IMG/VR virus record: IMGVR_UViG_3300028379_000400
Coordinates: 64,001-112,428 of that record
DNA from: a virus
Lineage: Duplodnaviria; Heunggongvirae; Uroviricota; Caudoviricetes
Direction: 5' to 3' (one strand)
DNA: 48,428 nt
Part shown: one piece after another, positions 3,162-10,004 of the stretch
Layout of the letters: each line of letters starts with the position of its first letter
Numbering within the stretch: the stretch's first letter is position 1
Notes under the pieces: generated by a model
What the model saw: the letters and a program-made list of their open reading frames with translations, nothing else
What the model was told of the DNA's origin: nothing
The model's database searches: none
Translations under genes and position numbers: made by a program

Positions 3162-3352
3162 TCCTCATGCCCATTGGCTGGTGGCTTGCGCCGCTGGCAA
3201 TCACCCTCCTTTCGTTCGGCTGGGCCATCCTCACGCCGGCATCACCCTACAACGGCAGCAAGTATTTCCCTGATCCCATGCCGTTCATTCGGCTGGTCGG
3301 CGCCATCGTCATTTCGCTGGTCGCGTGGCTCGTATGGGCATTGTTCAGATGA
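3158..3352 (+). CDS. Small 2-TM membrane protein
   Basis: TTGA overlap; IGWWLAPLAITLLSFGWAIL...IRLVGAIVISLVAWLVWALF. Confidence 0.6.
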   Translation: MILMPIGWWLAPLAITLLSFGWAILTPASPYNGSKYFPDPMPFIRLVGAIVISLVAWLVWALFR

Positions 3353-6049: not shown

Positions 6050-6137
6050 GGAAGCGTGGCAGAGTGGCTTATTGCGCCTGGTTGCTAACCAGGTAGGTCT
6101 CCGGGCCTCGGGAGTTCGAATCCCCCCGCTTCCTCCA
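6050..6137 (+). tRNA. tRNA-Ser(GCT)
   Basis: GGAAGCG/CGCTTCC acceptor, CCTGG-TTGCTAA-CCAGG anticodon arm, long variable arm, TTCGAAT T loop, encoded CCA; U73. Confidence 0.93.
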
Positions 6138-6140
6138 TAC

Positions 6141-6230
6141 GGAGAGGTGGCAGAGCCTGGTTTATTGCAGCGGCTTCGAAACCCGTCGGATCGAAAGGTC
6201 CCGTGAGTTCAAATCTCACCCTCTCCGCCA
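6141..6230 (+). tRNA. tRNA-Ser(CGA)
   Basis: GGAGAGG/CCTCTCC acceptor, G73, long variable arm GGATC-GAAA-GGTCC, loop TTCGAAA; C31:C39 mismatch. Confidence 0.92.
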
Positions 6231-6240
6231 CACCCCTTTC

Positions 6241-6324
6241 GGGCCGGCTGGGCATGGGTGAGCCCAAGGCGCTGTAAACGCCCCGTGTTAAGCTGAGGTG
6301 GTTCAAATCCATCCCGGCCCACCA
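6241..6324 (+). tRNA. tRNA-Tyr(GTA)
   Basis: GGGCCGG/CCGGCCC acceptor, A73, GGCG-CTGTAAA-CGCC, extended variable region, CCA; C8 and an A27:C43 mismatch. Confidence 0.88.
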
Positions 6325-6390
6325 ATATCGAGGACTGTCGTGACCGACGAAAGCTTCACCTTACGACTTACGCGATTGCTGCTCAGCAGT

Positions 6391-6466
6391 GCGCGCGTAG
6401 GCAAGCGGTAAAGTCGGCGGGCTCAAACCCCGTTCTTCGTCAGTTCGAATCTGACCGCGCGCACCA
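6391..6466 (+). tRNA. tRNA-Leu(CAA) with a short (5-nt) variable loop
   Basis: GCGCGCG/CGCGCGC acceptor, A73, GCGGG-CTCAAAC-CCCGT, variable loop TCTTC, GTCAG-TTCGAAT-CTGAC; 76 nt. Confidence 0.85.
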
Positions 6467-6469
6467 TTT

Positions 6470-6545
6470 GCCCGATTGGCGGAATGGCAGACGCAGGCGT
6501 CTCAGAAACGTAAAGCTCCCGGTTCGAGTCCGGGATCGGGCACCA
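6470..6545 (+). tRNA. tRNA-Leu(CAG) with a short (5-nt) variable loop
   Basis: GCCCGAT/ATCGGGC acceptor, A73, Leu-type D arm GCGGAATGGCAGACGC, loop CTCAGAA, variable loop AAGCT; 76 nt. Confidence 0.87.
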
Positions 6546-6646
6546 CCCCCCAAGGAATTCTAGCATGATCGCTCTCCGCGCGCAGTGGCAACGCCAACAG
6601 ATCACCGCCGCGTAGTAGAGCATCCCCGCTCGGCTACACGGCGTCT

Positions 6647-6721
6647 GCCGGTGTAGCTCAGTGGTAGAGCATGGGTCTCCAAAACCCAGTGTCTTCGGTT
6701 CGATCCCGAACGCCGGCGCCA
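6647..6721 (+). tRNA. tRNA-Trp(CCA)
   Basis: Canonical cloverleaf, TGGGT-CTCCAAA-ACCCA, G73, CCA. Confidence 0.95.
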
Positions 6722-6722
6722 T

Positions 6723-6797
6723 TCCCTCGTGGTGCAACGGTAGCATTCCGGGCCCTGACCCCGGCGATACAGGTTCGAATCCAAGTCGAGGGAACCA
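6723..6797 (+). tRNA. tRNA-Gln(CTG), atypical (C33, distorted T stem, A73)
   Basis: TCCCTCG/CGAGGGA acceptor, CCGGG-CCCTGAC-CCCGG, T stem ACAGG/CCAAGT with a mismatch plus bulge. Confidence 0.75.
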
Positions 6798-6800
6798 ATT

Positions 6801-7232
6801 TTGGCCGATGTGACCTGCAAGGCATGTTCACGCTGCGGCCGAGTTAAACCACTAGAGGAGTTTCGTCGGTGCAGTGCGCACGGCGACGGCCGTACCTCTG
6901 AATGCAAGGCCTGTTTTAGCGCCCGAGAGGCGGAATATTACCGCTCGACGCCTAACAGGCGCGAGGCAATCAAGAATCGCCGGCAAGCGGTTCGAGCTAC
7001 GGCCAAGCAGGTAGTGCGAGCGTATTTGCTCCTGCACCCGTGCGTTGATTGTGGCGAAACCGACTTCGAAGTGCTGGAATTTGATCACCGAGACCCGTCG
7101 TCCAAGGAAAGCGACGTCTCGAAGTTGCTCACATTCTCCGTCGAGAAAGTCATAGCGGAAATCGCAAAATGCGACGTTCGCTGCGCCAATTGCCACAGAC
7201 GCAAAACGCGTAGGCAGTTCGGCTGGGTTTGA
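6801..7232 (+). CDS. HNH endonuclease with N-terminal zinc finger (putative homing endonuclease)
   Basis: CSRC...CKAC zinc finger; CVDCGETDFEVLEFDHRDP...KCDVRCANCHRRKT HNH core; TTG start 3 nt after tRNA-Gln. Confidence 0.85.
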   Translation: MADVTCKACSRCGRVKPLEEFRRCSAHGDGRTSECKACFSAREAEYYRSTPNRREAIKNRRQAVRATAKQVVRAYLLLHPCVDCGETDFEVLEFDHRDPSSKESDVSKLLTFSVEKVIAEIAKCDVRCANCHRRKTRRQFGWV

Positions 7233-7243
7233 GGAGTTTTCTG

Positions 7244-7477
7244 ATGAGCGCAGCGCTACCGCGACCATCTTCCCTGCGTGTGGGGAAGTCTGGTCATCCT
7301 GCCGCACTCGGAATGCGGAGTATCGCGGGTTCGAATCCCGCCACGCAGACCATTTTTGAACCAATGCACATGGCGCCTGCAGATGCCGACTTTATCGGCA
7401 TGCGCAACCGCCTCGAGGCCGATATGTACCGCGTATTCGGCGTGCCGACACCCATGCTGCGAACCCCGACACGGTAG
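7244..7477 (+). CDS. Small ORF running in frame through tRNA-Pro; portal-like C-terminal motif (alternative start at 7364)
   Basis: GAGGAG RBS at 7231-7236; C-terminus DADFIGMRNRLEADMYRVFGVPTPML. Confidence 0.4.
   Translation: MSAALPRPSSLRVGKSGHPAALGMRSIAGSNPATQTIFEPMHMAPADADFIGMRNRLEADMYRVFGVPTPMLRTPTR
7274..7352 (+). tRNA. tRNA-Pro(CGG)
   Basis: CTGCGTG/CACGCAG acceptor, A73, CCGCA-CTCGGAA-TGCGG, GCGGG-TTCGAAT-CCCGC, CCA. Confidence 0.92.
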
Positions 7478-7483
7478 GCATTC

Positions 7484-7559
7484 GCCGCCGTAGCTCAGTT
7501 GGAAGAGCGCCGTCTTCGTAATTCGGATGCCAGGGGTTCGATTCCTCTCGGCGGCACCA
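7484..7559 (+). tRNA. tRNA-Thr(CGT) with a weakened anticodon stem
   Basis: GCCGCCG/CGGCGGC acceptor, loop TTCGTAA; U30:U40 and C31:U39 mismatches. Confidence 0.88.
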
Positions 7560-7645
7560 AAGAATACCCAGAGGCGGCCGTCACGTACGCGCCGCCGGCG
7601 ACCGGGAAGTGTAGTGGCGACGCCCGCTGTCCCGGTCGCTCGTAT

Positions 7646-7723
7646 TGCGGGCAGGCGAGCAAGGTGCACGCGGCGGCCTGTTAAGCCGAGTTTAGGCTGG
7701 TTCGATCCCAGCTCCCGCAGCCA
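7646..7723 (+). tRNA. tRNA-Asn(GTT), atypical (A8, C7:U66, G27:A43)
   Basis: TGCGGGC/TCCCGCA acceptor, G73, CGGC-CTGTTAA-GCCG, GCTGG-TTCGATC-CCAGC, CCA. Confidence 0.82.
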
Positions 7724-7739
7724 TTTTCAGAGGCAATGC

Positions 7740-8045
7740 ATGTCTCAATCTGGCCGTACAACCGCGATGATCCGCGCGTTGCCAGATGCCGGCGCTATTA
7801 TCGTGGTGCCGAGCAAGACCAGCGTCCAGCCGATCAGCGATATGATCCTCGAGCTGCGCGGTCCGGACTTCGACAAGCGCTGTGATGTCGTCGCGGTCAC
7901 CGACCATGACACGGCTCAACAGCTTCTCGGCGCCAAGCGGTGGATCGCCTTCGATCACACCTTTCGCGTCATGACACCGCGGGCATTGGCGGATGAGGTC
8001 TACGCATTGGCGCGGATCTCCAATTACCAGTTCCCGCTCCAGTAA
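7740..8045 (+). CDS. Small protein with a degenerate P-loop-like N-terminus (SQSGRTTAMI)
   Basis: GAGG RBS; fills the spacer between tRNA-Asn and tRNA-Ala exactly. Confidence 0.55.
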   Translation: MSQSGRTTAMIRALPDAGAIIVVPSKTSVQPISDMILELRGPDFDKRCDVVAVTDHDTAQQLLGAKRWIAFDHTFRVMTPRALADEVYALARISNYQFPLQ

Positions 8046-8122
8046 GGGCTCATAGCTCAGTTTGGGAGAGCACCCGCCCTGCAAGCGGGATGTCGTCGGT
8101 TCGATGCCGGCTGGGTCCACCA
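8046..8122 (+). tRNA. tRNA-Ala(TGC) with C33
   Basis: G3:U70 alanine identity pair, A73, CCCGC-CCTGCAA-GCGGG, CCA. Confidence 0.9.
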
Positions 8123-8136
8123 TTTTCGGAGGCGTT

Positions 8137-8388
8137 ATGCAGCGTCGCAACTTCATTGGCGGTGTCGCCGGCGTAGCCGCGGCCGCCTCAATCACCAAAG
8201 CGGTAGCTGAGACTGCGCCCGCATCGGCTGACATGCTCCGCATCCGCATGTCAGGACCGCAGATGGTCATTGCCGACAGCCAGGGCCGGACGGTGACCGA
8301 TATCAGCAACGGCAAGCTGCGCTTTGTGTCGCCTGAGCGCGGTTTCGTGCACGGCTTTCCAGAAGTCCGCGTTCTCGAGCGCGGATAG
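8137..8388 (+). CDS. Small protein with a twin-arginine (Tat) signal peptide
   Basis: GGAGG RBS; MQRRNFIGGVAGVAAAASITKAVA|E gives RRxF, an h-region and an AxA site. Confidence 0.65.
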   Translation: MQRRNFIGGVAGVAAAASITKAVAETAPASADMLRIRMSGPQMVIADSQGRTVTDISNGKLRFVSPERGFVHGFPEVRVLERG

Positions 8389-8389
8389 C

Positions 8390-8464
8390 GTGCCGGGAGC
8401 CAGGTGGGACGGCGGCGGATTGCAAACCCGCAAGGAGCGAGTTCGATTCTCGCCCAGCACTCCA
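8390..8464 (+). tRNA. tRNA-Cys(GCA), atypical (G8, C5:A68, A31:C39)
   Basis: U73 cysteine discriminator, loop TTGCAAA, GCGAG-TTCGATT-CTCGC, CCA. Confidence 0.85.
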
Positions 8465-8469
8465 GTTTC

Positions 8470-8539
8470 GCGGCCTCGTTGGGCGGATACAGGCCCACCA
8501 AGCCAAGTGTCGACGGTTCAACTCCGTTAGGCCGCTCCA
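8470..8539 (+). tRNA. tRNA-Gly-like RNA, anticodon ACC, truncated D arm (70 nt)
   Basis: Perfect GCGGCCT/AGGCCGC acceptor with C2:G71 and U73, intact T arm and CCA; only 3 bp of anticodon stem (GGC/GCC) around loop CCACCAA; the segment between acceptor and anticodon arm is about 6 nt short. Confidence 0.7.
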
Positions 8540-8589
8540 AATCAGCGTCGGCCGGCCTCTGCTTGCAAGCTCCGGCGCTTAGTCACTGA

Positions 8590-8666
8590 TGCGGGATAGA
8601 GCAGCCCGGTAGCTCGTCTGGTTCATACCCAGAAGGTCGGCGGTTCGAATCCGCCTCCCGCTACCA
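8590..8666 (+). tRNA. Initiator-type tRNA-fMet(CAT)
   Basis: U1:U72 mismatch, A11:U24 pair, fMet-type D arm GAGCAGCCCGGTAGCTCG; anticodon stem TCTGG/CCAGA. Confidence 0.88.
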
Positions 8667-8670
8667 GTGA

Positions 8671-8746
8671 TGACGCTTAGCTCAGTCGGTAGAGCGATCG
8701 GCTGATAACCGATAGGCCCCACGTTCGAGCCGTGGAGCGTCAACCA
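8671..8746 (+). tRNA. tRNA-Ile(GAT)
   Basis: TGACGCT/AGCGTCA acceptor, ATCGG-CTGATAA-CCGAT, CCACG-TTCGAGC-CGTGG, A73, CCA. Confidence 0.93.
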
Positions 8747-8953
8747 GTTCAAGCGGGGGCTGCCATTCGTGGCGTAAGTCCCCCTGACAAGCGCCGGTAC
8801 ACTCCCCGGCTAGGCCTGTCCGCGCTACCGCTTCCCCCGGACGAAGCCGAACCATGAGAACGGCGCGCACGGCTCCGCAATAGCGGGCTAGAAGCGCGAG
8901 AATTCGCCCGATCGGGCATTTCCATCGGCGCCCGGCGCGGCAGAGAACAAACC

Positions 8954-9274: not shown

Positions 9275-9682
9275 ATGGCCGATGTGACTCAGACGGCGGC
9301 GAACGTCATCGCCGGCGTTGATGCCGTCATTGACGATGGCTACTGCGGCGAGACCCTTGTCCAGGGCAATGTCGTCTATCAGGACGCCACGACCAAGCAG
9401 TGGAAGAAGGGCGATGCCAATGGCGCCGCTGCGCTGCAGGTCGCCAAGGGCATTGCGCTGACCGGCGGTGCTGTGAACCAGCCCTGTCGGATCGCGCGCA
9501 GCGGCACGATCAACGTCGGCGGCACGCTCGTTCCGGGCACCACGTATTGCCTCTCGGCGACAGCCGGCGGCATTTGCCCGCAGGCCGATCTCGTCACCGG
9601 TTGCGCGGTGGCGATCCTTGGCGTCGCCAAGTCAGCATCCCTGCTGGTGCTGAATATCCAGAATCCGGGCGTCGTCCTCTAG
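9275..9682 (+). CDS. Putative capsid decoration/cement protein (DUF2190-like beta fold)
   Basis: AAGGAGG RBS; GETLVQGNVVY...ADA...AKGIALTGG...G pattern of phage cement proteins. Confidence 0.55.
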   Translation: MADVTQTAANVIAGVDAVIDDGYCGETLVQGNVVYQDATTKQWKKGDANGAAALQVAKGIALTGGAVNQPCRIARSGTINVGGTLVPGTTYCLSATAGGICPQADLVTGCAVAILGVAKSASLLVLNIQNPGVVL

Positions 9683-9816: not shown

Positions 9817-10004
9817 GCGACGCTCCCAACGGCATGCGGACGACGCGGTTCTTTCCGAACAGCCGCGACACCGACTTCGTGAAGAAGCAGGCGTTCCATG
9901 ATCAGCGCATGCTGGTCGTGAATCTCGACGATCCGAAGATCGGCTGGGACGAGCGCCAGCTCCTCGAGAACATCGGCGTGAAGCTCTACGGGAAGCGCTC
10001 CTGA
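9813..10004 (+). CDS. Hypothetical protein
   Basis: TTGA and TGATG overlaps at both ends. Confidence 0.55.
   Translation: MSDAPNGMRTTRFFPNSRDTDFVKKQAFHDQRMLVVNLDDPKIGWDERQLLENIGVKLYGKRS

Follow-up and report, generated by a model that had tools for sequence, protein, structure and literature searches.

A short prophage tRNA-Gly gene with an intact acceptor half and a changed ACC anticodon arm

In staphylococci, the non-proteogenic tRNA-Gly species NP1-3 carry a UCC anticodon and are used by the Fem partners FmhB, FemA and FemB, a system limited to these bacteria (PMC7826273). Mom of phage Mu moves glycine from Gly-tRNA-Gly to adenine in DNA, probably by reading the acceptor end, and phage-encoded donors go unmentioned in the paper on this enzyme (PMC13219725). 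A tRNA-Gly-like locus within a mom homologue was reported in 2011 as a pseudo-tRNA of Dehalococcoides ssrA islands (PMC3146451). In a further group, loop and stem changes over many members of phage tRNA arrays are predicted to evade nucleases, although tRNA-Gly is not treated there (PMC10264068).

The element described here is a 70-nt tRNA-Gly-like gene in the tRNA array of a prophage. It shares with NP1-3 the GlyRS identity set (acceptor pairs, U73, C35 and C36), an altered D region and a T-stem pair other than G51-C63, and differs from NP1-3 in its canonical T loop, 13-nt D region, ACC anticodon and the lack of FemAB in the record. The Gly acceptor and the variable wobble base are shared with the mom-embedded pseudo-tRNA and the Mu Mom system, but the element lies in an array, no mom or other transferase gene was detected in its record, and its orthologue carries UCC. 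The array context and the loop and stem changes over many members are shared with the nuclease-evading tRNAs, but here the wobble base itself has become A and the D arm is minimal. The element appears to work most like the non-proteogenic tRNA-Gly, yet without the partner enzyme of that group.

The element and its tRNA array

The window, which is the whole stretch of 48,428 nucleotides analysed, is the right part (positions 64,001–112,428) of a 112,428-base provirus record (IMGVR_UViG_3300028379_000400) with a completeness rated 88%. A GcrA gene in the record points to an alphaproteobacterial host. No close cultured relative of the prophage was found in the phage collection, and nothing was found either by searching for the exact 3'-half DNA or by scanning viral contigs with TerL as the single protein. 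ARAGORN detected 14 tRNAs at 6050–8746, none of them tRNA-Gly, and no others in the genome. Together with the Gly element they form an array of 15 genes on the plus strand, upstream of the HNH-terminase-head genes; the head genes, of HK97-like type, begin at 10004. The element (8470–8539, plus strand) has the anticodon ACC and an encoded CCA, and is the sole tRNA-Gly-like gene detected in the prophage. The tRNA-Cys (8390–8464, plus strand) ends 5 nt before it, and an initiator-type tRNA-Met (8590–8666, plus strand) follows after 50 nt. The same Gly-spacer-Met order is found in L001, the contig of the closest terminase relative.

Other features of this region were also recorded. The spacer (8540–8589) is GC-rich with a possible hairpin, partly conserved in L001:181-231. 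Non-coding stretches within the array (7570–7645) and after it (8750–8950) have long inverted complementarity and no Rfam match. An HNH endonuclease ORF (6801–7232) and a small ORF with a TAT-like signal (8137–8388) lie inside the array, and a TAT-like ORF also follows the tRNA-Met in L001. No sigma-70 promoter-like site was detected for the array, and the 377-aa ORF at 3349 had no informative look-alike.

All sequence features listed in the first-pass annotation were confirmed, namely the 7/7 acceptor stem with Gly identity elements, the T arm, CCA, the shortened D arm, the 3-bp anticodon stem, C33 and A34. The acceptor (8470–8476 and 8529–8539, the latter including U73 at 8536 and CCA) is Watson-Crick throughout and begins with G1:C72, C2:G71 and G3:C70. 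The set reported for GlyRS substrates (PMC7826273) is complete in the element, as C35 and C36 are also present. The T arm (8512–8528) has 5/5 pairs, including G49-U65 as its one G-U pair, A50-U64 and C51-G63, under a canonical UUC-A loop (UUCAACU). The region from the acceptor to the anticodon stem is only 13 nt, versus 18–22 nt in the other 14 array tRNAs. The U8-A9 linker is absent, and a mini D hairpin of 3 bp with a UGG loop starts from base 8 (8477–8485); it is weak and displaced by one base relative to the orthologue. In the anticodon arm (8490–8506), the stem (8492–8494 with 8502–8504) has 3 bp, since C27·A43 and A28·A42 are mismatched, and the loop (8495–8501, CCACCAA) has C33 at 8496 and ACC at 8497–8499. 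The element thus departs from a canonical elongator by C8 in place of U8, the 13-nt D region, the 3-bp anticodon stem and C33.

Default ARAGORN missed the element and the Rfam tRNA model RF00005 did not report it, and ARAGORN with relaxed thresholds called it Gly-acc amid about 190 noise calls. A model of other short tRNA-Gly scored it at 47.9 bits (E 7.7e-9). When both strands of the 112-kb genome were scanned for a T arm plus acceptor, matches were confined to the array and included the Gly element, which is therefore no chance match. The D region can form a mini hairpin with a GG loop, as can 57% of its shuffles. In the predicted ensemble the anticodon pairs with the D region (0.66) more than within the anticodon stem (0.33), and intact orthologues also misfold in this program. 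Taken on its sequence, 8470–8539 is a real gene.

The idea that C33 is special to this element was abandoned, because C33 and stem mismatches occur array-wide. C33 is also found in the array tRNA-Ala and tRNA-Gln, six other members have anticodon-stem mismatches, and the tRNA-Thr likewise keeps 3/5 anticodon-stem pairs. In the tRNA-Gln(CUG) (6723–6797), C33 occurs with an irregular T stem (a mismatch plus a bulge), that is, with a top-half lesion.

Orthologue, related genes and decoding

The L001 phage has a terminase 72% identical to that of the window phage, and the orthologue of the element (L001:112-180) lies in the same place before the tRNA-Met. The acceptor plus NCCA is identical in the two (0/18 differences) and the D regions have equal length. 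The L001 copy has a normal U33/UCC loop on a 4-bp anticodon stem, and a third copy, L033, has the same acceptor and also UCC. The anticodon arm of the window element departs from both by U28A, U33C and U34A. In the T stem, three pairs have changed relative to L001 and all are still paired; these changes are compensatory and, with the lineage-specific lesions lying in the anticodon arm, random decay is disfavoured (p about 0.07).

The Gly element differs from L001 at 17/70 positions and the neighbouring tRNA-Met at 14/77. Four-fold sites of terminase and portal genes are 52% identical between the two phages, and compared with this neutral level the 53/70 identity of the element is far higher (p between 1e-5 and 3e-4), suggesting that the element has been under purifying selection. 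None of the 32 constrained top-half positions is damaged. The three clearly damaging changes are all in the anticodon arm, with p 0.07 if changes fall randomly over constrained positions, or p 0.03–0.01 if D changes are counted (four or five damaging). There is thus modest support that the damage asymmetry is real, and since only one true orthologue was found, the timing and direction of change are judged from two sequences and L033. The comparison does not show a random decay that extends into the acceptor stem. The proposed selection on the top half agrees with the acceptor/NCCA identity and the compensatory T-stem changes; conservation of the top half only is not shared by related arrays, as the closest homologues retain a normal U33/UCC anticodon arm. 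An unconstrained pseudogene, or an anticodon arm misread in base calling or assembly, would fit the provirus location and the fact that just three arm changes, two of them adjacent, separate the element from its orthologue. Set against the undamaged top half and the excess of identity over the neutral level, this explanation is very improbable.

The conserved acceptor also bears on a possible decoy function, in which the element would divert host defence toxins that recognise the acceptor stem of tRNA-Gly, such as the toxSAS FaRel2 or the GNAT toxins TacT and AtaT. Such toxins are indifferent to the anticodon arm, and the invariant G1-C72, C2-G71 and G4-C69 are three of the four FaRel2 determinants (bioRxiv 10.1101/2024.07.05.602228). 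However, pair 5 is C-G where FaRel2 prefers a purine-pyrimidine pair, the known phage counter-defence tRNAs evade and decode (same source), and a decoy would be a poor sink for a catalytic toxin. This role is considered improbable.

Outside L001, TerL relatives of 43–64% identity have other tRNAs and no such element within 10 kb. The 135-aa gene at 9275 has its homologues in head clusters, and these clusters contain no tRNAs. Upstream of the terminase in L002, L003 and L004, RNA repair or nucleotide genes (RtcB, T4-type ligase, PNKP, RlaP, HD) occupy the place that the large array has in this phage. The related L004 phage, which also encodes tmRNA, RNA ligase and PNKP, has an initiator-type tRNA-Met (L004:5193-5276) that ARAGORN missed; its D region is short and its variable arm contains an additional hairpin.

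To place the short D arm, a class of mini-D phage tRNA-Gly was defined here by pattern scans of IMG/VR, which gave at least 120 matches of 67–72 nt, some of them ordinary tRNAs with a 6-bp acceptor. A hairpin from base 8 or 9 with a GG loop was present in 28/28 picked sequences versus 14 expected from shuffles, although these sequences were hand-picked and the pick itself favours this result. In 22 intact members, two-sided changes occur in all four helices, including all four D pairs. The D hairpin and this covariation suggest that the short D arm is architecture rather than erosion. Of the eroded bottom half originally proposed, the anticodon-arm part (U28A, U33C, U34A) is therefore kept and the D-arm part is rejected. 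The window element shares the class length, the Gly acceptor, the base-8 GG hairpin (weak in this case) and the canonical T arm. It falls outside the intact-decoder subgroup (7-nt loop, U33, UCC/GCC/CCC, at least 4 stem pairs), whose members keep U33, a UCC, GCC or CCC anticodon and 4–5 anticodon-stem pairs. A model of the 22 intact members gave 53–81 bits for held-out intact members, 53–83 for intact members overall, 72.9 for L001, 47.9 for the window element and 32–52 for elements linked to transferase genes. Narrow class patterns found only chance coding matches in metagenome and genome contigs, and no description of the class was found in an incomplete literature collection. Because standard tRNA finders miss mini-D genes, phage tRNA sets are under-counted.

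The element may still decode, with its anticodon arm rewired against host anticodon nucleases and an unmodified A34 reading all four GGN codons. It is the sole tRNA-Gly of the prophage among 14 other tRNAs, the C33 of tRNA-Ala and tRNA-Gln and the 3/5 stem of tRNA-Thr show that its irregularities have company in the array, and it keeps a canonical T loop and the D-loop GG. Consistently, intact-loop mini-D members are conserved in a decoder-type manner, a tRNA-Gly mutant with A34 was able to decode all four Gly codons (PMC3711424), and phage tRNA loop changes are predicted to evade nucleases (PMC10264068). In contrast, the combination of C33, a rare wobble base, a 3-bp stem and a mini D arm is not seen in any other tRNA of the array. 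In simulations the Gly anticodon stem-loop is less stable with A34, and cells hardly ever have a tRNA-Gly(ACC) (PMC6720975). The G51-C63 pair present in 22/24 intact members is lacking here, and 67% of the Gly codons of the phage are GGC. A specific form of this idea, in which A34 superwobble would serve Gly-rich fibres, was rejected: GGC makes up 83/156 and 71/115 of the Gly codons in the fibre genes and is readable by the host tRNA-Gly(GCC), so that these genes do not call for an A34 decoder. A rewired decoder is less likely than not, yet it ranks only a little below the preferred reading given at the end.

Drifted tRNA-Gly genes and transferases in other phages

Short tRNA-Gly genes with drifted anticodon loops were found near transferase genes in other phages. 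Among records with an ACC short element, 13/14 encode Mom, PF22559 (GNAT-phage-like) or DruA, and the remaining one is a 7-kb fragment. Mom or PF22559 is encoded in 16/25 drifted-loop versus 1/25 intact-loop records (Fisher p 1e-5), a p value that overstates the case because these 50 whole records were chosen by hand and include many fragments and some related records. DruA occurs in one further drifted-loop record.

In one group the element, of 69–70 nt, overlaps the start or end of a Mom gene (L007:7579-7647, L022:5345-5413, L034:4989-5057, L049:2110-2178, L074:888-956, L011:836-905, L077, L096, L098, L122, L152, L163). Seven such elements of 69–70 nt have exactly the window acceptor but odd T loops, and six further ones have normal T loops. 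Several Mom-overlapping elements combine 6-nt anticodon loops with non-canonical T loops. In L034 a further Mom-like gene is present, likewise accompanied by a tRNA-Gly of its own.

In a second group, drifted tRNA-Gly genes, often with ACC, lie just upstream or within a few kb of a DAM-like-phage1 plus GNAT-phage-like (PF22555+PF22559) fusion with ParB (L168:1321-1389, L129:4245-4313, L115:7049-7117, L138:12841-12908, L169:3759-3827, L151:13389-13457, L105:6088-6156, L203:10156-10224, L204:9613-9680), and at greater distance from it in L111 and L202. This neighbourhood predicts, by analogy, that the PF22559 GNAT family may use Gly-tRNA-Gly as Mom does. When Mom was compared with a PF22559 protein at the profile level, no similarity was found, so that the GNAT label in Pfam is the only link between the two. 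No report of a phage tRNA-Gly beside GNAT-phage genes was found in the incomplete literature collection. In two complete phage genomes, drifted short tRNA-Gly genes (L134:13101-13171, L097:8293-8364) occur with none of the four tested transferase families, and these are candidates for a further partner family.

The enzyme-linked elements differ from the intact ones in the T stem, as G51-C63 is present in 22/24 intact versus 3/16 enzyme-linked elements. A pair other than G51-C63 marks weak EF-Tu binding, and the C51-G63 of the window element is suggestive of poor EF-Tu binding; C51-G63 is also found in the intact L033. Enzyme-linked elements are enriched in A34, and several share C33-A34-C35-C36 (L105, L011, L203-L205). 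The window element therefore has both traits of the donor group, the drifted loop and the pair other than G51-C63.

These traits raise the explanation of a dedicated glycyl donor, which would be a substrate of GlyRS, avoided by EF-Tu, and would serve an undetected Mom-fold or GNAT transferase, for example in DNA hypermodification. Mom takes its glycine from Gly-tRNA-Gly, probably recognising no more than the acceptor end (PMC13219725). The loop counts given above, from hand-picked and non-independent records, and the T-stem counts are on the side of this explanation. However, most linked elements overlap or abut the enzyme gene, and the window element sits in a tRNA array with a normal UCC tRNA as its orthologue. 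On a model of enzyme-linked elements, it scored 47.4 bits versus 50.9 for L001 and 53.9 for L033. The fall from 72.9 to 47.9 on the intact-class model with no rise on the enzyme-linked one indicates that decoder features were lost and donor features were not gained.

Consistently, searches for a partner enzyme were negative. No Mom (two models and an own profile), PF22559, PF22555, DruA, XF1762, FemAB or PF13480 was found in the provirus record, where the XF1762 model was used without a positive control. No tRNA-dependent transferase family was recognised in thirty further early ORFs. The sole GNAT is a stand-alone protein of 149 aa among the early genes (genome 3205–3654, minus strand, L195), 69 kb from the element, and it looks like an ordinary acetyl-CoA type. 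Methylases of the Dam, MT-A70 and C5 types are already encoded by the phage. Another assembly (ENA ERZ27251944) reaches past the left end of the record and has there an unannotated gene of 151 aa and an excisionase-like gene, after which probable host genes begin, including a probable host PF13480 GNAT at the integration side. As only two small genes seem to lie beyond this end, the absence of the enzyme is probably real, bar the 151-aa gene or an unknown family; that same gene and the PF13480 gene after it are points on the side of a donor, but PF13480 is common, being above cut-off in 10/14 control genomes. The glycyl donor proposed in the first-pass annotation thus gained from the ACC-type short tRNA-Gly genes elsewhere, which almost always occur with Mom-fold or GNAT genes, and lost from the lack of a detected glycyl transferase in this prophage. 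For the window element itself, a donor role is doubtful.

A relaxed decoder and its significance

The preferred reading, held tentatively at a probability of about 0.35, is that the element may be a former UCC decoder with a relaxed anticodon arm that is still processed and chargeable. The ancestor would have been a normal UCC decoder, and the anticodon arm would have been freed from selection in the window lineage. The element is probably transcribed together with the rest of the array. RNase P, recognising the undamaged acceptor/T half, would cut at 8470 and thereby release the 3' end of the tRNA-Cys 5 nt upstream. Host GlyRS would then charge the element, since it retains all of G1:C72, C2:G71, G3:C70, U73, C35 and C36. 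The ribosome would use it poorly or never, given the 3-bp stem, C33, A34 and the lack of G51-C63. The top half would persist because precursor processing and charging read that half alone, and not because of a dedicated enzyme.

The tRNA-Gln of the same array is also lesioned, which supports the relaxed-decoder reading. However, the excess of A34 and the recurring C33-A34-C35-C36 in enzyme-linked elements look more like design than drift, and the C33 and stem mismatches seen across the array may be an adaptation. U28A, U33C and U34A may have switched a decoder to a non-ribosomal ACC glycyl carrier, comparable to those beside Mom, DruA and PF22559 enzymes, that serves an unrecognised family of Gly-tRNA-dependent enzymes, and this switch is considered rather unlikely.

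Only three changes in the anticodon arm separate the ACC copy from its UCC orthologue there, and the two constitute a natural test of decoding by mini-D tRNAs. The same pair bears on the function of A34 in tRNA-Gly and on the origin of non-ribosomal carriers. The PF22555+PF22559/tRNA-Gly neighbourhood may matter more than the window element itself, and its prediction for the GNAT family is testable.
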